A stretch of DNA of 63,906 nt, filler included, from Atractiella rhizophila (taxonomy: Eukaryota): NCBI GenBank assembly GCA_021432655.1. It is 9 parts of 9 records of this genome, joined end to end, with 100 filler letters (N's around TTAATTAATTAA, not from the genome) between each part and the next. Parts side by side here need not be neighbours in the genome. Positions count along the whole stretch, not along the records: positions 54,810 to 62,415 come from MU272202.1; 8 more parts are not named here. The stretch is one strand, 5' to 3'. Below, one piece after another: positions 3,001 through 62,415 of this stretch. Under the pieces are notes generated by a model. The model was not told the origin of the DNA, searched no databases, and worked only from the letters and a program-made list of their open reading frames with translations. Every line of letters starts with the position of its first letter. Position 1 is the stretch's first letter. The translations under genes were made by a program, and so were the position numbers.

Positions 3001-6000
3001 CATTTCAGAATACCACGGAGAATATCGGAGTCTGGCGACTGCCATTGATCGTGGATGGTTGATTATTCTCCAAAGTTTATGTGAAGAGATTCGTTTGGGT
3101 GTAGTTCGAACGTTAGCATCGTTGAAAGGGAGCAGATTGCGGGAATTTGACATGAGTAGCTCCCAGGATACCATGGAACTCCTCGGGACTTTTGAGCAAG
3201 ATACTAAGCAAATCCGATTTCGACAGGCGATAGAGATGCTCAGTTGCACCGTTTCGGAGGCCGTGCACTCCGGTGTTGGTGGCGAACATATTATGGACGT
3301 AATCCCTCAGCTCCACTATCTTCTATTCAAGGCCGAAGGAACGAAATTGGATAGGGAGTGCGCACTAAACACCCTGCACGCCACAGAGAAGTGTTTACAG
3401 GACCAATCGACCTATACCTCCAAATTAGCCGCCATTCGCCAGAAGCTCCTCAGCCTGGATATCAAAAAGGGTTCCTTCGTCTGGAGAGACGGGAGCCTAG
3501 TGAGGTCAATGCTGTCTGGAGAGTGGCTTTTGTTGCGTAACGCCAACTTTTGTAGCCAGGCTGTTTTAGACCGTCTTAACTCTGTCTTCGAGATCAATGG
3601 TCGCTTGCAAGTGAACGAAAGAGGACCGGTTGAAGGCGAAGTAATAACAATCAACCCTCATCCGGACTTCAGAATGTTCCTCAGCCTTGACCCATCCAAA
3701 GGAGAGTTGTCTCGCGCCATGAGGAACCGAGGTATTGAGACATTCTTGGTTACTTCAGAGACACCGTTGGGATTTGGAAATGATACTGGATACCGGAACC
3801 TCTTATACGAGCCTTCTTTGACTTGGCTCACGAGATTATTTTCTCCGCTCGCTCCTAGTCCCTCAGTTATGTGGCATTGCGCTTCCTTGCAAAATAAACT
3901 GGCTAAAATCCCTCCGTCATATCATGGGATTGCCGCGAGGTTCGACTGTCACTTGTCCTCTGATAGGTCATTGGGTCAACTTCTATCCCGAGCAGTTGAT
4001 TGTGGGCTATATGCGAACGTCATGCGTACTGCTGAGACATTATCTCAGCGGCGCCACTTCGTCACTTACCGTGTAAGCTACTCTTCATTTCTAAAGTTGA
4101 GTCCGTATAACTTTGGCACAGCCTCTTGACAAAGCTGCGTTGCCCTTTCACTTCCTGCAAATATCAGATCCACACCTGGAAACCGTCGTTTCGGCACATT
4201 CCGCCGCCATCTACAATTTAGCATCTTGTCGACATTCTGCCGACTCTTCCTCCTTTGATGGGAAAAATACTTCTGGAGGGGATTACGTGCAGATGGTCAC
4301 AATTGCTCAAATGGACCTACAAGCACTGCTCATTGAGCTATGCGGGTTTAATTTTGAGACCCTTCAAACTGTGAGCCAATGTCCTACGTGACATTTTGAC
4401 TGATATTAGCTTCAGGACGTGACAGACTTGATCTTTTTTCTAGGAGCGTACAATCGTCATTTGATTGCTCTGGCAGCGCGCCATACTTTTGACCATGCGG
4501 CAGTGGCTGAAACACTGGAGTGGTTGACGAAATTGGTGCAGACATTTCCATCGGCTCTGAAGCCCTGGTCAGATCCAGTCGTGGCTAAGGTTAGGCGTGC
4601 GATCACACTTGTGAATCGCTTAAGTGGCAAGGGGTTCGAACTGTTCTGGAGAGGATTCAGCATTAGTGATAAAAGGCTATACGGGCTGAATAAAAATGTG
4701 ATCGTTTCCAGGATTCACACCACCAAGCTTGAAGGTTGGTTTTCCAAGGTATCCATTGTTGGCTGATAGTTTATTAGATATGAGCAACATCATTTCAGAA
4801 ATCTCGACGATCCTTTCTTCAGAATGTAGACAAGAAAGATCCGTGGGCATATTTGAGGTGAGTTGAACGTGGTGGCAGGGACACGCTGATAAAATACAGG
4901 CCCTAAACTCGGCCACCTCATACATCAACTCCGATTACAATCACTCAAGTCTTTATGAAGAGGTGGTTGGAATAGAGACTCAGATGCAGACAATTCTCGA
5001 CGTAGGTCGTCACCTTGGTCATTCCTACATGTTATTCACAAGAAAGTAGGGCACAAGCGTAGTACCATTTCTCAAGCACCTACTGAAAAGCAGTAATCAT
5101 ATTCCACTTTCCATTATCATCAACACTTCAAATCCAGCCTTGCAGGCAGCGGACACACTCCAGATGTTGTCCCAGACCTTCGAACATGCTTGTCACGGCC
5201 TGCAGGGAATCGGCATCAGTGTGAGCCCTTGTCCACGCCGTCGTTGTCGCTTGCATCCCCTTAATACTTCAGTAGACAAGAGAGTGGCAGCCACATTTGC
5301 TTCTACGGGCACAGATTTTGGCTTCTGTTGTGGGAATGAAGTGAGTTGCAGTGATCATCGTTTCTTTGTATTCTGACGAAAACAAGACCCGATGCTTCTC
5401 TGCAAGATCTTTCCCAAGTTCGGAAAGAAGCTCAGGGAGCGATGGATGTACAGCGATTACTTCGAAACTCCTTACAGCAGCACTCCAGACGGCTTCAGCT
5501 TGTCCGCCTTTTTTTTGCTTCCATTGATGCTGTGAGTTCCATTGGTTTCGTCCGGCCTTTATGCCAATCAGCTAGCAGATCCGCATTGTCATGGAATCTT
5601 CGATAGAGCTCGTGCAGCAACATCCGCAATCGACATTGACAGCCACATTGATTGTTAGTCGTCAGATCCTGGAGCGAGCTTCGACATCAGCAAACGAGGA
5701 GTATCGGACAGTATTTTGCTCGACATTGATGCCACAGGCTTATGCCTTGCTCGCTGCAGTGGAACAAGGAGAGTATGAAACCGAGCTTGGCAAGAGTATG
5801 GTAGCGCTTGCGCGAAGTTTCTGGCGCCTGCTCATTCCCAACTTCCCTGTGGATCCAGTGGCTGTAATTCTGCATCGTGGATCTTTCCTGGCGGATGAAA
5901 TTGCCGGTATCGATACCTCTACCCATGTCGATGCCGAGTCAAATGTTGTTTTCCCCGCACAAAGTACTCCGAGGATTGCCCTCCTCGAGCGATGGAATGA

Positions 6001-7801: not shown

Positions 7802-7901
7802 NNNNNNNNNNNNNNNNNNNNNNNNNNNNNNNNNNNNNNNNNNNNTTAATTAATTAANNNNNNNNNNNNNNNNNNNNNNNNNNNNNNNNNNNNNNNNNNN
7901 N
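7802..7901. other. Artificial scaffold linker N44-TTAATTAATTAA-N44; same linker at 15675-15774, 23533-23632, 31339-31438, 39145-39244, 46939-47038, 54710-54809, 62416-62515
   Basis: Identical 100-bp structure occurs 8 times. The 12-mer gives stop codons in all six frames, and genes are cut at several linker edges. Confidence 0.98.
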
Positions 7902-11987: not shown

Positions 11988-12962
11988 NNNNNNNNNNNNN
12001 NNNNNNNNNNNNNNNNNNNNNNNNNNNNNNNNNNNNNNNNNNNNNNNNNNNNNNNNNNNNNNNNNNNNNNNNNNNNNNNNNNNNNNNNNNNNNNNNNNNN
12101 NNNNNNNNNNNNNNNNNNNNNNNNNNNNNNNNNNNNNNNNNNNNNNNNNNNNNNNNNNNNNNNNNNNNNNNNNNNNNNNNNNNNNNNNNNNNNNNNNNNN
12201 NNNNNNNNNNNNNNNNNNNNNNNNNNNNNNNNNNNNNNNNNNNNNNNNNNNNNNNNNNNNNNNNNNNNNNNNNNNNNNNNNNNNNNNNNNNNNNNNNNNN
12301 NNNNNNNNNNNNNNNNNNNNNNNNNNNNNNNNNNNNNNNNNNNNNNNNNNNNNNNNNNNNNNNNNNNNNNNNNNNNNNNNNNNNNNNNNNNNNNNNNNNN
12401 NNNNNNNNNNNNNNNNNNNNNNNNNNNNNNNNNNNNNNNNNNNNNNNNNNNNNNNNNNNNNNNNNNNNNNNNNNNNNNNNNNNNNNNNNNNNNNNNNNNN
12501 NNNNNNNNNNNNNNNNNNNNNNNNNNNNNNNNNNNNNNNNNNNNNNNNNNNNNNNNNNNNNNNNNNNNNNNNNNNNNNNNNNNNNNNNNNNNNNNNNNNN
12601 NNNNNNNNNNNNNNNNNNNNNNNNNNNNNNNNNNNNNNNNNNNNNNNNNNNNNNNNNNNNNNNNNNNNNNNNNNNNNNNNNNNNNNNNNNNNNNNNNNNN
12701 NNNNNNNNNNNNNNNNNNNNNNNNNNNNNNNNNNNNNNNNNNNNNNNNNNNNNNNNNNNNNNNNNNNNNNNNNNNNNNNNNNNNNNNNNNNNNNNNNNNN
12801 NNNNNNNNNNNNNNNNNNNNNNNNNNNNNNNNNNNNNNNNNNNNNNNNNNNNNNNNNNNNNNNNNNNNNNNNNNNNNNNNNNNNNNNNNNNNNNNNNNNN
12901 NNNNNNNNNNNNNNNNNNNNNNNNNNNNNNNNNNNNNNNNNNNNNNNNNNNNNNNNNNNNNN
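11988..12962. other. Intra-scaffold sequencing gap (others at 17521-18332 and 59348-59667)
   Basis: Runs of N without the TTAATTAATTAA tag. Confidence 0.97.
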
Positions 12963-16415: not shown

Positions 16416-17499
16416 TTACAAGAGGCCTGCCAGGACTCATCAATAAAGATTCTGGGGGGAGAGAAAGGCGACGTACCTGATTCCCTGAGGTTTTGCTGGA
16501 TGATCGTATCGTTAACCGCAGACAGAACGAACTTGATCTGAGTCGTATCGGTGGCACCTATTTGACCGCTGAGCTTTACCAACAAAAACCGAAAGAAAAC
16601 AAACAAGTCAAATGGCAATAGATCTGTTTAGTTGGGCTCTGATTCAGCGCCACGAACCTTCCGGTGAAGTAATCGCAGGCGGCTTGGAGGTCTTGACCGC
16701 CCTGGTAGTCAGGGAAGAAAGGTTCGATGGGAGACCGCGGGAGCTTCTCCTTGAACAGATCGATCTTGTTCAAGAAGAGGATGATTGACGTCCGCACGAA
16801 CCACCGGGAGTTGCAAATCGAATCAAAGAGGACCAAAGACTCTTGCATCCGGTTAACGCTCTCGTCCTCGTACAGCTGTTGATCGTATTCCGAAAGAGCA
16901 ACCAAGAAAATAATAGCCGTCACATTCTCAAAGCAGTGAATCCTGTGTGACAACTCGTAAGCGCAGAGCTCGTGACAATGCGACGGAGGAAGAATACTCA
17001 CCACTTCTTACGCTCGGATCGCTGTCCTCCGACATCGAACATCCGGTACTTCAGCTCGCCAATCTGGAAGTGGGTCTCCGTGATACCAGTTGTCTTGACA
17101 CGCGAGCGCAGCACGTCTTGATCTGATGGTAAATAATTGGGAGAGCCTATCCGTTGGATAGAGTCGAAGTAGCTTTTAGAAAAGTTAAATTCGGGCACGA
17201 ATAAGCTTTGGGTGGGGAATGCTCACTATTGTGCGGAGTCGTTGAGCTGGAACTCCCTTGACCTCTCAAAGGCTTTCCGGACCCCAGAATCGTTCCACAA
17301 ACCATAAATCGCCTTCACCATTGCCATGAGAGGGGTTACGATGCCCGGGAAATGCGCGAGAAGGACTGACCTGTGCCACCTTTGGATCAAGGGTATCGCC
17401 CTCAATCTGGTGAGGCAAGCCCATGATGACGTTTGCCAACTCCTGAGATCCAGGATTGGTGAGGTTGATACCCATCATTTCCATAGCATCGAGGATGAC
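16416..17499 (-). CDS. Heterotrimeric G-protein alpha subunit, fungal group I (Gpa1/Galpha-i-like); 5' exons lost in the gap
   Basis: [81 protein letters not shown]. Spliced C-terminus is NLRESGLL*. Confidence 0.96.
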
Positions 17500-19275
17500 C
17501 TATTCGAGGCATTCTAAGTTNNNNNNNNNNNNNNNNNNNNNNNNNNNNNNNNNNNNNNNNNNNNNNNNNNNNNNNNNNNNNNNNNNNNNNNNNNNNNNNN
17601 NNNNNNNNNNNNNNNNNNNNNNNNNNNNNNNNNNNNNNNNNNNNNNNNNNNNNNNNNNNNNNNNNNNNNNNNNNNNNNNNNNNNNNNNNNNNNNNNNNNN
17701 NNNNNNNNNNNNNNNNNNNNNNNNNNNNNNNNNNNNNNNNNNNNNNNNNNNNNNNNNNNNNNNNNNNNNNNNNNNNNNNNNNNNNNNNNNNNNNNNNNNN
17801 NNNNNNNNNNNNNNNNNNNNNNNNNNNNNNNNNNNNNNNNNNNNNNNNNNNNNNNNNNNNNNNNNNNNNNNNNNNNNNNNNNNNNNNNNNNNNNNNNNNN
17901 NNNNNNNNNNNNNNNNNNNNNNNNNNNNNNNNNNNNNNNNNNNNNNNNNNNNNNNNNNNNNNNNNNNNNNNNNNNNNNNNNNNNNNNNNNNNNNNNNNNN
18001 NNNNNNNNNNNNNNNNNNNNNNNNNNNNNNNNNNNNNNNNNNNNNNNNNNNNNNNNNNNNNNNNNNNNNNNNNNNNNNNNNNNNNNNNNNNNNNNNNNNN
18101 NNNNNNNNNNNNNNNNNNNNNNNNNNNNNNNNNNNNNNNNNNNNNNNNNNNNNNNNNNNNNNNNNNNNNNNNNNNNNNNNNNNNNNNNNNNNNNNNNNNN
18201 NNNNNNNNNNNNNNNNNNNNNNNNNNNNNNNNNNNNNNNNNNNNNNNNNNNNNNNNNNNNNNNNNNNNNNNNNNNNNNNNNNNNNNNNNNNNNNNNNNNN
18301 NNNNNNNNNNNNNNNNNNNNNNNNNNNNNNNNTATATGAGCGACTTGCAACCCTAACCCTACTTCTTCTTGGGTAGTAACGGGGTTTAACTTCGCAAGGA
18401 GACACGACCTTCTGTTTCGGTAGCGAACACAGACAGCAGTAAGACGACGACATATTTGGACAGCAGTTAGCTATGTAGATAAGTCCCTAGGGAAACAATG
18501 TCTTGAAAAGTCTGGAAGATCGAGTCGAATCTGTGGAAAGAAGAAAGAACCTCGTTCCTCGTTTAGCTGGTGTTAGCACAGGGAACGAGGAACGGGACGG
18601 CCGACTTTGCATACAATATGTTCATTTGGACTCTTCTAGAAGAGGTGCATCGTTAACGGTGAGACGTGAGATGGTTGTTTGATTTCAGAAACCGACAGAC
18701 GGAGTAAGAGCTGGTCTGCTTCTATCTCTCATATATGATGAGAGCCGCTGCTACGCAGTTCCTTTGGAGTGATCGCAGGACAGAGCTCACACCACGTCTT
18801 ACTTTTGGTATCGCCCATGGTTCACTCTAGCAACATGCCATAAACTTGAACGGCATATAAGGGAGCTCACAGTCTGGACATCTTGCTGCAATAAATGTGA
18901 TTCTGTTGGTCACTTCTCGTTAGCCTCTCCCTTAACTGAGCTTGCCTTGTTGATCCTTCATTGGATGCTCCGCTCCTCGACTCGATCAACTTCGCCAGTC
19001 AGAGCTTCCTCACCCTTCTATTCTCGTAACGTAGCCTTATCCCTGGCCTTACCGGGCAAGAAGATATTCCACAACGCACATTATTCGCAAAGAGGCCTTG
19101 CTGAGTCTTGATAAACGAGTCATCGCATCCTGTGGCTGATTTTCGGGAAGAAGTCGTGAATGCGGCACGTGCGTCGTTACAATAAAACTTGGCCACGCAG
19201 CGCGCCGTTCCCGGCTTTCTCCATTCTTCACGCTCAGCCTCACTTTCCTCATCCACAACACCACCCAGAACACCC

Positions 19276-54809: not shown

Positions 54810-56392
54810 GAGAGAAAGTCCGGTCCATTCTTTCCCTTTCCCGATGGCCTTTCGCTCTCATTCGAGTTGGACGATGGAGTCGTGGACGGTGCCAGACTCC
54901 CTCTCCTCCTCAACCCCTCAGCACCGAATTCCATTCCCATACCCGATACCTTTGACGGGTCGATACAGGAGCTCAAACTCTTCTCCGGACTCGTCGGTTC
55001 CTCACCCGACCCTTCCCTGATCGTGCTCAGCTTGTGAATGAGGATATGATGACCTTGATTGGATGCGCTCATCGAAGGCGAAAGGGAATAAGAGACCGAA
55101 TTCGCAGGCGAGTGAAACGGCGGCGTTATGGTCGCATTTGAGTCCTCAGATAAGCGAGGAAGCGGTTGAATGGTCATTGACCCTGAGAGGCGTTCGCGCA
55201 TGACGGGGAAATTAGGGGTGTTTGGGCTGGTAGAAGGACTTGCTGGAGTAATGGGCGAGCAAGGGACGATAGAGAACTTGTTGCCTCCAGATAGAGACCC
55301 AGATTCCTTCGTGCTCTCCCGCTTCATTCCCCAATCTCGAGTCGCCGTCGGAGTGCCAATAAGCGTCGTCTTCTGGGAGTGGACTCCCCACGGTGCGTAC
55401 TCTTCCGTTTGGATGCAACTGAATTTACTCCTCGTGCCCCTTGAGTGAGAAGAAGAGCCGTGCTGACGGGTGTGTTGGGGAAGCGGCGAAGCGGGCAAGG
55501 AGTCACGTTTAGAGACAGAAGAGATGAGGAGCTGCAAGAAGGTATAGGTGTATATCTCTGGTGTCAAATGTCAAGAGGTGTGGGTACGTATGAGAAAGGA
55601 AGACGAACTCGGCAAGAACATGATTGGCAGGTAGCACCATGAGAGATAACCTGCAACCGTGTTAAGACGCCAGAGTATGAGCGCTGAGAGTTGCAGGGCA
55701 GTGACCAAAATGCCCTATTCACAAAAAGAGCTCCAGTGTCAACCACCGTAGCGAAGAATGTGATGTAACGGGAACGTACAGTTTGCACAGTCAACTTCAT
55801 GAGGAAATTAATCAACTTCTCCGCCTTTCCTTCTTGCTTGTCCTCGTATTGGTAGTCCCTCTTGGACAACCATAGCTCGAAACACATCGCAATTGAAATA
55901 CAGATGTCCACGACCGATGAGATGATGAACCAAGACGTTCCGAGAGTAATGAACATTCCGTTGCTCACGAGGAGGTTGAGGAACTTGAGGTGCTATGATT
56001 AGACCATTGCTGGTTCAGAGAATGTTCTCTTCCTGGAGCAAAGGAGAGTCGAACCTTGATGTCAGCAGACATCCACACCCCAACGACAGTGCTCAACAAT
56101 ATGCCGAGGACGCCAGCCAAAAGAAGAGTCGAGACGAGGACGACCTTCCATGTCTTCCTGTGTCGCCCGATCCAAATCGAGTTTCGATCCAAGAGGTATT
56201 TCGAGAACACATAAACGCGATATAGCAGATAAGCTTGCCCATGAGACCTTCAGATGGACAACAATTTGATCAGCTATTAACATTCTGAAATGGAAAATGG
56301 AGGTGGGCGACAGACTGCAAGAGGACTCCAAGAAGAGGAGAGATGCTATCTTCGTATCGAGCGGTGATGAAATAACCCAAGTCTCCCCAATG
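54810..56392 (-). CDS. DUF6534-type basidiomycete multi-pass membrane protein, 3' exons (5' exons lie in the reversed block)
   Basis: HWGDLGYFITARYEDSISPLLGVLLQ-SHGQAYLLYRVYVFSK..WFIISSVVDICISIAMCFELWLSKR..KLINFLMKLTVQT, then a Ser-rich tail to the scaffold edge. Confidence 0.8.
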
Positions 56393-57210
56393 ACCTTTTT
56401 GTTTCTTAGCAATCCGACCCGCAAGCTATGTTCGGTAGATGCTAATAACTAGGTAGTCGGGCGCCAACATCTACTCCCTTTTTACCTGGAGTATCGTAAC
56501 TAGTATAAGAGAAAGCAGCCGACAAGGAAGGTTGGGTAGGGGCCAAATAGGTATTCGTACTGCTTTAGCGATCTGACTATAGGCATAGAGAGGTAGTTCT
56601 TGGAGGACTGCAAAAGGCGTAGTAAGGTTGTGGGAAACTCGAGGCGGGAGCTCGGTTGTATTAACTAGGGCTACGTGTTGCGGGAAGAAGGAGGGGCTTG
56701 TTAGGCTCATGAAGGTGGTGACTAAGCGGAGCAAGACTCCGACTATTACGTGGACAGGTTTCAAGCCTCCGTAGTAACTAGGACCCCCTCCCCCTGGCCC
56801 TCCCCGAGGTATCACTACACGACGACCTCCCGGCCCTCCTCCTCACATGTGGCTTCTCCCTATACCAGCCATTAGCAGCTCCGCTCCTCCCCGCCTCCCT
56901 CCAACCATGACCAACATAGGCGGAGGAGGTGGCGGCCCAGCCCTCAACCCTCCTCCGTACCCTCCTCGTAACATGCTGCATAATATGGGCGACAACATCA
57001 GGGCTCTGACCCCTCCGACCAACCCTCCGCCTATCCCACTACGTAACCCTCTACCCTTCCTACCTGGAGGGCCTCCTCCCATCCCACTGCTCAAACCTCC
57101 TCCTATACCTCTCCGCAAACCTCCACCCATGCCTCTCCGCAACCACCTCCCATACCCCTCCTAACTCCGACGACGGTGCCGAACAACGGACCTATCAACA
57201 AGGTGCTGTA
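56393..57210. CDS. MCA1: Metacaspase 5' half, readable only by reading the + strand backwards from 57210
   Basis: MSWNNYPGNKPWQQPQSSPYPPP..(SPYPPPN repeats)..WKYSDCSGRKK(A)LCIGINYVGSRAELKGCWNDAENVRRFLMERYGY..QPTKENMINAMR-[GTCCAT..GCTGAT..TAG intron]-WLVSNAQPNDSLFF(H). Two 1-bp indels in short homopolymers. Confidence 0.95.
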
Positions 57211-58957
57211 CCACACACACTAGATACAGAAGACAAGGTGTTTGACAGTCACCGAGCAAGTAACAGGAAGCGCCTCCTCTCTAGTTAAACCTCGTATACA
57301 GAAACTGGCAATCTATTGTGGTTTCTCCTTCGAGACCCAGAAACGTGAACCTCACCAGTGCGGTCATTCTAGCATTGTTCGGGCTGTTAGCCTGCCGACG
57401 TAAGAGTCCGAGAGGTGGGCGAGACTCTGTGCGTTAGTAAGTTGTTTTCTAGGGACTTATAATTCGCGCCTACCTAGACTAGTAGAGTTTCGAGATCGAC
57501 ACGTTGCAGGAAGGTTTTTTTCCGAGTTCAACCGCCCTGTTTCCCTTCTCCGAGTGACGAGTGAAAAGAACAGAGTTCCCACCACTTAAGCGGTCTCCTC
57601 TTGTTCAGGTTCTCCGCACGAATACTTGAGCGCTCATGAGCTCACGGGCACGTTTGCGTCCGGGCCAAACGAGCAAATATGCGACCCGACTTTTGGCGTT
57701 GCGAACCCCCAGATTAATAGGATCGTTGACACACCTACCTTCCACAGCTCTTGTTCGGGGAACTCGGTAGCGCGGACGGTCAAAGAAAAGTAGCAGAGCA
57801 AACGCATTTCGTGGCAGCGCACCAGACGGTACTGCAACCGCGCACCTATAAGGAGTTTCTCAACACCGGCTACTTAGACTCTGTAGCGCAAAGACCGCAC
57901 GAAGTTCGCAGCGGGTCAACTGAAGAAAAGTCGGAAGGCTAGACACCGAAGAAACAAACTTGGTGCGATTTTCGACACAATAGCGTTTTATAATGAGTCA
58001 AACACCTAGGACAGCTTTAAGGACACGTATTACTGAGGAACCTAAGTAAAAGTAGCAGTTTGATCAGGAAGAAGACAAGTGTTCTCTTCACTGTCACCCC
58101 GCTGAGGGTCTGTTGTGTGAAGGGCAACCTTCGCGACTCGTAGCTATTCGCGGGTTAAACACGAAGAAGACCTCAGGAGAATCTTGGGAAGGGCAAACCC
58201 CAGCAGCCGAAAACAAGTGGACGTTCAAAAGTAAAACTTTTGGTGTTTCGAGGCGACTTCGTAGCGCTGTAAGTATGTAAGTTTAAACAAGTTTGAGTTC
58301 TCTAGACACTAAAGTTATTTTCGGCAGTTAGCAGTCCGCTTCTTCGACCTACCTAGTTAACAACTGCACTTCGCTCCAAGTTCGACGGAGGTTCTGGGTG
58401 CTCGTGGAGCAAAAGGTGCGGAGACCTTTCTAGACCTGAGCTATCCCTAAAGTTTTATAGTCTACTCCAAGTGCTCTAACTCCTCTAACCCAAACCCCAA
58501 AAAGATAGCTCCAGTTACAAGGCGAAGAGACCTAGTAACATCACTAGAGGAGGGAGGGCAGTTACAAACGAGGAGCTAGTTAGTTTGTGGAGTTAGCACA
58601 AGGGTTAGCTTGGCTTCGCGAATTACTACGTCCTCTTCACGACTCTTCCGGACTCTTCCCGTCTTAACCGTCTTCGTCAACGACTACAAAAAGCCAACCC
58701 CGGGACTGTTTACCTTCGGTAAACTCAATCCAACCTGCGACGTCTAGACTAACTGAATAACAAGTGGTGGGTCGAGAAACCTTCTATAACTTCCCTTCAG
58801 GCCAGACTAGAACCAATTGCACGAAGCTTGCGGGAGTCGGACAGTAGGTTGCAAGCGAAATATTTTCACAGGAAGAGACTGGGAGAGGAACGGAGTTTCG
58901 TTGGATGCAGGGAACTCTTAGAGGGAGCGTTGCTGATAGCAGTCACGCTCCTAACTC

Positions 58958-59347
58958 TACCTGAGGGAGTTAGAACGGTACTTGGTTTAGGTCGTAAGCC
59001 GTCTCGGAACAAGACGGTGATAAGGGAGACGGAACAATAAGCTATCGTGGACGGGAAAGTAAGAACCACGGAAGGAAAGGCGTAAACCACTCAGACGTAG
59101 GTAGAGAGTAAACTTCTCCAGTCTGTGCGAATAGCGCACGTAATCCCTACCCATAGGAGGAGAGGCTTCCGCGCTCCATAAAAGCTTTGCGAGGTAGCGT
59201 ACCGGTGTCCGATTAGTTTCGTTACCAGCCAGGAGGAGACGAGAAAGCTTGGAGGACTGCTTCCTTCGTGTCTGCCGTTATCAGGAGAAGGAGGTCAAGC
59301 GAGTCTGCCACTGGCTGTATGAAGCTCAGGAGTTTTAGAAGAGAGAG
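58958..59347. CDS. 5' exons of the DUF6534-type gene, readable only as the unreversed complement
   Basis: Complement reads ATG(58958) MDSLNLAMNQIQHSAEPCSATIPSALLFDSTCPFILGAFLSAF-[GTGAGT 59088..TAG 59145]-GMGILLSEGARYFRNAPSHGHRLIKAM-[GTCGGT 59226..CTGAC..CAG 59272]-TAIVLFLQFAQTVTDILRVLKIFSL. TATAAAA at about 58860. Confidence 0.92.
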
Positions 59348-59667
59348 NNNNNNNNNNNNNNNNNNNNNNNNNNNNNNNNNNNNNNNNNNNNNNNNNNNNN
59401 NNNNNNNNNNNNNNNNNNNNNNNNNNNNNNNNNNNNNNNNNNNNNNNNNNNNNNNNNNNNNNNNNNNNNNNNNNNNNNNNNNNNNNNNNNNNNNNNNNNN
59501 NNNNNNNNNNNNNNNNNNNNNNNNNNNNNNNNNNNNNNNNNNNNNNNNNNNNNNNNNNNNNNNNNNNNNNNNNNNNNNNNNNNNNNNNNNNNNNNNNNNN
59601 NNNNNNNNNNNNNNNNNNNNNNNNNNNNNNNNNNNNNNNNNNNNNNNNNNNNNNNNNNNNNNNNNNN

Positions 59668-60048
59668 GGCGCTGCGGAGAGGACGAAGAAAAATAACACT
59701 TCTGCGGCTGATGTAAGGCTTGCTTCTCTTTCTGAAAAGGTGGGCTGAAGAAGGGATACCTAGGTCATCATGTGGAGTGGATGTAAGGATACTCAGACGA
59801 GTGCAGATACTTCTGAAGGCGGTCAAGCCACAGGAGCTATGAGGTCCGTCTCGCTTTTCGCAGCAGTTAAGAGAGCTGAAACGAGGTGGTGTAGCTACGC
59901 CTTCATTTCCAGTTTGACAAAAATGCCGCAGCAAAGTTACAAGCAAATGTTGAACACTATCAGGGACGAATTGCAGGGAAGATATAGTCAGAAGCCTCAG
60001 CTTTCCGCCAGTCACCCCATTGATACCAACCTCTTGTTCATCATCTAG
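59668..60048 (+). CDS. MCA1: Metacaspase 3' exons (normal orientation)
   Basis: [83 protein letters not shown], a canonical type I metacaspase C-terminus. Confidence 0.96.
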
Positions 60049-60325
60049 TCAAAAACAATGCTGGATTCTAGCCTTATCTGGGTATGGTTTGGAGTGTGCG
60101 AATGTCACCTGTGACTGAATATTCGGAGAATGACTGATCTGTTTGTATCATCAATGAAATAAATAGAAGTCGATTGATTGTACTCTGATTGTTGATCGTC
60201 TTGCAAACGCTAAATTAGTCCGATACATTCAGCCACGACAGATACCTGAATTACTGAGAAGGTTCACAAAGGATCGCCATGGTATGTGGGAAACCGGAAG
60301 AAATCGTAGGGAGGGAGATAAGCGA

Positions 60326-62415
60326 TCACGTGGAATCGCAATGGTATAAAGCAAAGAGCATGACAAAGGGAGCAGCAGCCTTTCTCAGAGTTTGGGTTTG
60401 ACCTGTGACTGTAATCTTCACTGGCGAGCGCGAACGAGGTATGAAAGGAAGACGTACGGCGATTTGTTCACGGGGTGGTAGGTGCTTCGGTCTGTTCTTC
60501 GAGAACGATGGGTAGACCCAACTGTTCATCAAGTTGAACTGACCCTCCGAGTAAGGATGGTATCTCCCCCCTGCAATGTAGTCGTAGAATTTCGGAACAG
60601 AGAGGTAGGAACGCTCGTAACAGAAGGTCGTGAAAGACCTGCGAAACAAGACTCGACCACCTTTCTAAGAGGCACAAAAGAAATGCTCACGCTTTGCCAT
60701 GATAGTTCCCTTGTCCTGAAGGCCCAACTCCTCCGAAGGGCAGCCCAGGGACACCAAACTGCAACATGCAATCGTTCTGCAAGCAATTTCAGTTCTCTCC
60801 ATGGAAGAGAAAGGTTTGCCGACTCACATGGACTATCTGACCAGAACGTGTCCAATGCTGTATATATTCGACGTTCTTCTTGTCGCTCGTGAAGACGTAG
60901 AGCGCCAAAGGATGCCCTCCTGAATTGATATGCTCCACCATCTCCTCCTTTGAGTTGATGGTCAGTATGGGCAAGAGTGGTCCAAAGATTTCTTCCTGCA
61001 ATTTCTTCAGTGTCCAACCATGTCACAGTAAGGGGACACGAACGCTCATAAGCGAATCATCCTTCTTGACATCAGAAACAACTGTAAAGCCCATCCTAAG
61101 GTTGTCTCCTCCAACTGTCCCTCCGATCTGGACTTTCCCGCTCGTATTCTCCAGCAATTTGCTGAGGCGGCCAAAGTTCCTGTCATTGATGATCTTAGGA
61201 TACTCGGCTGATTTGAGTGCTTCGCCATCTTCTTTGGGATACATTTCTTTGAGGGTCTTCTTCATCGCTTCGATGAGACGTGGCTGCACGGAAGCAGGGC
61301 ACAGGATGTAGTCCGGCGCAATGCAGCTCTAAATGCACACAAGTTGTCAACGATCGACGAAACTCTGACATCGAAGTTTCGAACCTGGCCAGTGTTAAGG
61401 TGTTTACCAAACAGCAGACGTTTGGCTGTCAAATCAACATCACAATCCTCGAAGACACACTGATCGGAGCGAAGAAACGTTAGAGGCGTGTACGGTCAAA
61501 CCAAGTCAGACGCACAACTGGGCTCTTGCCACCAAGCTCAAGGGTTACGGCTAACAGGCTTTATGAGAACTCATGTCATGAAATAATAAAAGACGTACGA
61601 GACATATATTTCGCTGCAGTTTTTGCGATAATTCTACCAACGGTAGTGCTCCCTACATTTGTTGGCTTCTGAACTGCTTATGCTTGAGCCAAAAGGTAAG
61701 CGTACCAGTGAAGAAAACATGATCCCACGGTCTATCTGTCAATGCCGTTGTCTCTTGGATGCCGCCGTTAACGAGCTTGTAGCACGACTGATGCGATCCA
61801 TCTTTCAGTTAGCTGGATCATGTCGTGAGAGGACAGAACGAACAGAATCAAGGTATTTGGGCAAAAGTTCAGCGAGAAGTTCAGCCGAATGAGTCGCCAA
61901 TTCGCTGGGTTTGATAATAGCTAAGAAAAAGCTCCAAAGTTAGCAAAGGCATTAATGTACCACTCTAGAGACCTACCAGTGCATCCAGCGGCAATTGCTC
62001 CGAATAAGGGGGGTAGCAGCAAGCCTAAGGTGATATCAGACAATGATGAAGTAAGTGTTTATTTCGGCGCACTGAACGGGTCTACGAGCAGGGTCAACTA
62101 ATATTCTTGAAAGAAGGGGAAATTTACAATTCCAAGCGCCGATGATGACCACGGCACCTATTTACAGGTAAGCAGGCGACGGGGGAGTTACAATGAGATA
62201 CCTTTTGGTTCGTGGTAGGTCATGGGACTGGCGAACTTCCAGATAAATTCGGTGTCAGCTTTGACGGGCTGGATCCACTTGGGGAGATTTCTAATCAAGC
62301 TGTGGACGTCTTCTTTCATGGCCCAGATTTCGCTTAAGTATGCTTCCATTTTCGGCTTTCCCAAATCCTTCAAAAGGGCGTCTGCAATTGCGTCCTGATT
62401 TTCCTCAATCATGAA
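60326..62415 (-). CDS. Fatty aldehyde dehydrogenase (ALDH3/Hfd1 family), many introns, 5' truncated
   Basis: DALLKDLGKPKMEAYLSEI, EPKG-AVVIIGAWN, IAAGCT-IIKPSELA, LELGGKSP, CIAPDYILC, EEIFGPLLPI, PLALYVF, PFGGVGPSG-G.YHGK, FTTFCYER. Confidence 0.95.

Follow-up and report, generated by a model that had tools for sequence, protein, structure and literature searches.

Introduction

Draft genome assemblies commonly contain contigs that are misoriented at gaps, and the locus described here resembles such errors in that a contig end lies beside a run of N, gene models are broken, and alignments stop at a sharp breakpoint. Ordinary orientation errors, however, are reverse-complemented and keep their genes on the other strand, whereas the block reported here encodes nothing on either strand. 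A natural DNA inversion likewise gives a reverse complement, and we know of no replication or recombination route to a polarity-reversed copy. Mirror repeats, which form H-DNA, offer another comparison because one stretch is reversed in letter order relative to another on the same strand. A mirror repeat is short, rich in purines or pyrimidines, and has both of its copies on one molecule; the block, in contrast, has no forward copy in the stretch analyzed, and its forward copy is the true genome sequence. As far as titles and the opening parts of abstracts tell, full-text phrase searches brought up no description of an assembly or database error in which a sequence is reversed and not complemented, and to our knowledge no named assembler or gap closer has a fault of letter order. 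A reversed-only block is thus, as far as found, a distinct and undescribed kind of record error.

Here we describe such a block in a draft assembly of the fungus Atractiella rhizophila (GCA_021432655.1). It hides parts of two genes, one of which is a fungal type I metacaspase (Mca1/Yca1 type, Pfam PF00656). The catalytic His and Cys motifs of metacaspases are HYSGHG and DSCHSG.

Results

Layout of the window. The window, i.e., the whole stretch of 63,906 nucleotides that was analyzed, is a chain of nine draft scaffolds of 7801, 7773, 7758, 7706, 7706, 7694, 7671, 7606, and 1391 (cut) bases in descending length. Neighboring scaffolds are joined by a linker of 100 bases, composed of 44 N, TTAATTAATTAA, and 44 N, which places a stop in all six frames. 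Because the scaffolds were joined by this linker and sorted by length, adjacent pieces of the window are not genomic neighbors. The window also contains three real gaps of the original scaffolding, which are irregular in length (11988-12962, 17521-18332, and 59348-59667). The features of the scaffold of interest are as follows.

7802-7901 and seven further sites at about 7.8-kb spacing: linker joining the scaffolds
54810-62415, no strand: scaffold carrying the block, eighth in the chain, 7606 bases, with a linker on each side
54810-59347: left contig, 4538 bases, ending at the 320-N gap
56393-59347, no strand: back-to-front block, 2955 bases, reversed without complementing
59348-59667, no strand: scaffold gap of 320 N
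59668-62415: right contig, 2748 bases, beginning after the 320-N gap

The block constitutes the final 2955 bases of the left contig and adjoins the N run exactly. It is mirrored as a single piece and in place, and both of its ends fit their neighbors only after reversal; in the true order of the scaffold, 56392 is followed directly by 59347, the positions then descend to 56393, and the gap comes next.

Coding signal in both letter orders of the block. Stop-free runs of at least 80 amino acids in the block summed to 809 aa as given and to 1925 aa when it was reversed without complementing. By this measure three flanking segments of equal size behaved in the opposite manner, being longer as given (2096, 1461, and 1079 aa) than mirrored (1567, 908, and 623 aa). 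For a protein-level comparison, natural relatives were fetched with the normally written gene parts and then compared with the mirrored block by tblastn (E <= 1e-5, both strands). None of the 121 fetched proteins matched either strand of the block as given, while 83 matched the mirrored block. The remaining 61 kb of the window served as a control and gave the reverse picture, with matches to 121/121 proteins as given and 0/121 when mirrored, so mirroring alone makes no protein likeness. The eight longest ORFs of the as-given block that were submitted (84-127 aa) matched no Pfam family. The first-pass annotation had called the block meaningless in both normal orientations, and these searches bear this out. 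When the block was compared by blastn with the remainder of the window, neither its as-given nor its mirrored form returned a match, which rules out a repeat or duplicated copy as its origin; with no second copy in the window, its identity as a mirror repeat or H-DNA element is ruled out as well.

The block was also examined with a hexamer score that compares each word with its own reversed spelling. Training was strand-symmetric, used the other scaffolds, and omitted both the block and the scaffold under test (leave-one-scaffold-out), and scoring was performed in 500-base windows. Within the block, all 25 windows scored below zero (mean -75.7, maximum -39.4), as did only 5 of the 531 windows outside it (mean +55.8, sd 24.7). 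At 100-base resolution, the switch of sign falls between 56300 and 56400.

The hidden membrane-protein gene. A search with the normally written portion of the minus-strand gene that lies left of the block found a single protein, the hypothetical protein BT69DRAFT_1137531 of A. rhizophila (P0121; 368 aa), which comes from a 110,687-base contig and belongs to no Pfam family. The parts of this gene in the window are listed below, the coordinates of the hidden exons having been converted by a = 115740 - c.

55327-56392, minus strand: normally written part of the membrane-protein gene, multi-exon, P0121 residues 96-368
58958-59347, no strand: hidden first exons of the membrane-protein gene, readable only as the complement in ascending coordinates
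58958-59089: hidden exon, P0121 residues 1-44
59145-59225: hidden exon, P0121 residues 44-70
59273-59347: hidden exon part, P0121 residues 71-95

In the as-given order, exact agreement with P0121 sets in only at residue 96, which lies exactly at 56392. Reversal of the block gives letter-for-letter agreement at residues 1-44, 44-70, and 71-122. The third of these exons (residues 71-122) spans the joint between 59347 and 56392, at which ILRVLKIFSL is followed directly by HWGDLGYF, and across the joint P0121 reads ILRVLKIFSLHWGDLGYFITARYED. At the nucleotide level, the complement of the block ends with CTC AAA ATC TTC TCT CTC at 59347 and continues in frame with the minus strand at 56392. This in-frame joint had been proposed from the sequence, and it now lies within one exact P0121 exon. 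The window and P0121 differ elsewhere at a few residues (H/Q, S/W, L/P, C/S, A/G, and I/N).

The hidden metacaspase. The second gene crosses the gap, and its C-terminal part lies on the right contig. A search for metacaspases gave 138 candidates, of which 137 had E <= 0.001. Among the proteins fetched was a peptidase C14 of A. rhizophila (P0001; 254 aa), which, like P0121, comes from a 110,687-base contig. P0001 scored 118.4 bits on PF00656 (Peptidase_C14) against a cut-off of 21.4, a score that belongs to P0001 and not to the mirrored protein of the window.

56393-57210, no strand: hidden stretch for the N-terminal part of a fungal type I metacaspase, which on the given strand can be read only in the backward direction
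56559-56488: P0001 residues 1-24, exact match with the block reversed
56439-56395: P0001 residues 24-38, exact match with the block reversed
59668-60048, plus strand: normally written C-terminal metacaspase exons (59668-59715, 59764-59841, and 59893-60045, plus stop codon)

As given, P0001 matches the window at residues 163-254 only. These residues correspond to the C-terminal exons beyond the gap, which are 100% identical to P0001, as is 59896-60045 of the last exon taken by itself. With the block reversed, all five mappable exon pieces of the split metacaspase are 100% identical to P0001. The mirrored reading opens at as-given position 57210, read downwards, with the conserved start MSWNNYPG, passes through a Pro-rich stretch and RRALCIGINYVGSRAELKGCWNDAENV, and closes with NAQPNDSLFF. 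This last segment stops 2 bases short of the as-given block start, and reversal of the block places that end 2 bases from the gap. A metacaspase N-terminus that runs backwards from 57210 to DSLFF and points into the gap, with the C-terminus beyond it, had been noticed from the sequence and was recovered as described. For seven of seven other metacaspases tested, and in each case only after reversal, an additional N-terminal match appeared whose end lies at scaffold position 4533-4536, and the metacaspase similarity on which the first-pass annotation had staked the reversal is thus present. The introns inside the block, set by exact exon matches, read GT...AG in the mirrored direction in three of three cases, in agreement with the earlier observation that introns with GT and AG appear in the mirrored readings. 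A single non-complementing reversal hence mends two genes at once, as had been claimed, with both P0121 and P0001 reading through.

The 320-N gap takes the place of P0001 residues 39-162, which correspond to at least 372 bases. The stretches HFSGHGG and DCCHSG are present in P0001 within these residues and are absent from the metacaspase of the window, where they fall in the gap. The mirrored reading resembles a fungal type I metacaspase in its MSWNNYPG start, and the Cryptococcus MCA1 (P0025) has a comparable Pro/Gln/Tyr-rich N-terminal region. It departs from such proteins in that part of the domain lies in the N gap and that two frame changes are required relative to homologues, near corrected scaffold positions 3789-3804 and 4237-4253. 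The P0001 model starts only at MLMDK, downstream of both. The frame changes may be indel errors of the block consensus or real changes in the gene.

We considered whether the mirrored protein likeness could reflect chance composition, as might arise if Pro-rich codons remained Pro-rich in the reversed order. The as-given block does contain an ORF of 128 aa (56778-57164) that is rich in Pro, and hence CCN-rich DNA keeps its character in both directions. Chance composition would, however, have to account for P0121 being matched exactly over stretches of 44, 27, and 52 residues and P0001 over stretches of 24 and 15. The caspase-domain matches also lie outside the Pro-rich part, and the mirrored 61-kb control matched none of the proteins. 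We regard the probability of this explanation as practically nil.

Independent contigs across the breakpoint. A search of public sequencing runs with the whole scaffold listed 16 runs, and contigs from X1 and X2, which represent one sample, from X3, a different sample, and from X4 were compared with the window. The best three of the 16 runs listed shared 0.49, 0.48, and 0.29 of the sampled words; a share of about 0.57-0.59 would be expected if only the flanks were real (4331 of 7606 bases, or of 7286 non-N bases), a comparison that is suggestive only. X1 and X2 may represent the sample from which the window was assembled.

Contigs of X1, X2, and X3 fit the left flank at 55790-56392 and stop fitting at 56392. 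Past this position, the X1 and X2 contigs continue with GAGAGAGAAGATTTTGAGGACTCGAAGTAT. This continuation corresponds to 59318-59347 in reversed, non-complemented order, with agreement at 30/30 letters in X1 and X2 and at 29/30 in X3, and on the minus strand it translates as ILRVLKIFSL. One X1 record reaches 559 letters beyond 56392. On the other side, contigs enter the gap from 59668 with letters for GKSLIGGGGK, the P0001 residues just before residue 163. Contigs of X3 and X4 skip both metacaspase introns (joints 59712/59764 and 59841/59893) and therefore look like RNA. In the 11 bins covering 56588-59381, no contig of X1-X4 was placed, and this missing cover was not counted as evidence.

Independent contigs and the two A. 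rhizophila proteins thus hold the un-mirrored order. The first-pass annotation had attributed the block to an assembly, gap-filling, or data-processing error and had named reads spanning 56392/56393 as given as the observation that would speak against this; at that junction the contigs carry the un-mirrored order instead, and the block is an artefact rather than a biological feature. Taken together, it shows no signal as given, its homology is restored by reversal, and independent data are un-mirrored across the breakpoint, as is characteristic of a sequence reversed and not complemented.

A real arrangement of the DNA, either a natural inversion or a genomic segment of reversed polarity, has the as-given sequence itself and nothing else in its favor. 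A natural inversion would be the reverse complement and would therefore appear on the minus strand of the as-given block; since the tblastn search covered both strands and matched 0/121 proteins, a natural chromosomal inversion is ruled out. A polarity-reversed segment would demand that a 5'-3' backbone run on into a 3'-5' copy of itself, which it cannot do, and contigs from two samples are un-mirrored across 56392. Real biology is excluded for the samples examined, and overall we assign this explanation a vanishingly small probability.

Scattered differences separate the window from the run contigs, and two variant contigs are present locally in X1 and X2. Such pairs occur at 60693-60879 and 62019-62228, at different depths, one member having 0 or 4 gaps and no letters that differ from the window, the other having 8-13 differences. 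Because of these variants in X1 and X2 and the residue differences from P0121, two haplotypes or strains are suggested, and the scaffold appears to be a second allele, or another strain's version, of the locus on the 110,687-base contig.

The right-hand contig also carries a multi-intron gene on the minus strand at 60298-62415, in which the X3 and X4 contigs show at least 11 short CT..AC joints of 44-103 bases. At 62024/62128, these contigs have 9 other letters between the two sides.

Gap edges and a second candidate. Hexamer scoring was performed outward from the 22 contig edges of the window, comprising 16 linker edges and 6 real-gap edges. Two edges, each belonging to a real gap, showed mirrored runs: from 59347 the score reached -188.6 within 998 bases, and from 18333 it reached -51.4 at 262 bases. 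By the same score, none of the 16 linker edges and none of the remaining four real-gap edges showed a mirrored run; given these four, any bug would not be universal. The value of -51.4 was attained from 0 of 3446 arbitrary starts, the lowest being -39.3, with the proviso that these starts overlap and are not independent.

18333-18594, no strand: candidate second backwards piece, beginning exactly at the right edge of the gap 17521-18332, from hexamer statistics only

This candidate piece is non-coding, is flagged by a single statistic trained on about 58 kb, and contains no recognizable protein in either reading. Exact-pattern scans of metagenome contigs gave 0 matches to an unchanged 31-mer to the right of 18333-18594 and 0 matches to an unchanged 42-mer from the exon to the left of the gap. 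The latter exon belongs to minus-strand ORFs at 16576-17500 that read like a G-protein alpha subunit. This putative gene enters the 812-N gap, and its N-terminal part is absent from the window.

The edge scores bear on when the error arose. It could have entered after deposit, with the block reversed when scaffolds were chained into a pseudo-molecule, in other later handling, or by deliberate alteration. The window has visibly been processed, as its length-sorted scaffolds and six-frame-stop linker attest. Furthermore, the metacaspase search contained no protein of at least 89 aa from a 7.6-kb contig and the membrane-protein search none of at least 250 aa, so that the as-given state is not tied to a public annotation. 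The block is, however, bounded by an original assembly gap and not by a linker, mirrored runs occur at 2/6 real-gap edges versus 0/16 linker edges, and a reversal at a random place would seldom end exactly at a contig end. We consider a reversal after deposit a less likely but serious alternative, and we infer that the error was already present in the source assembly.

Discussion

The block at 56393-59347 is real fungal sequence that has been kept in the 3'-to-5' direction by an in-silico error, most likely one made when a contig end was extended into a scaffold gap. A gap-handling step is indicated because the block ends at a real gap, fits in place, and mirrored runs occur only at real-gap edges; the causal step was presumably gap closing or contig extension. 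As given, the block equals the true plus strand reversed or, equivalently, the true minus strand complemented and not reversed, and either half of a reverse-complement operation carried out alone therefore yields it. In the source assembly, the end of the left contig would have been extended by 2955 bases into the scaffold gap. The extension would have been set in the right place with its letters written in the wrong order, and the 320 N would have been left for the part of the gap that it did not reach.

The fault may be systematic, in that a gap-closing or contig-extension step writes some extensions reversed and 18333-18594 is one more case. We put this forward tentatively, as a possibility somewhat short of an even chance. 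If it holds, blocks written backwards would lie at many gap edges of this assembly and conceal genes from annotation, other assemblies made in the same way would perhaps be affected, and wrong sequence would be present in databases and training sets.

The usual checks miss a block of this kind, because its base composition is the same and it bears no specific frameshift or stop-codon signature. The score that compares forward with mirrored k-mers found the block cleanly, flagged the second candidate, and is usable at the gap edges of whole assemblies.

For A. rhizophila, the consequence is that the first exons of the membrane protein (95 residues) and the N-terminal part of the metacaspase are invisible to six-frame searches of the record. 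Both hidden genes are ordinary, a type I fungal metacaspase and a hypothetical membrane protein. The finding bears on data quality only, and the record wants correction or masking of the block.
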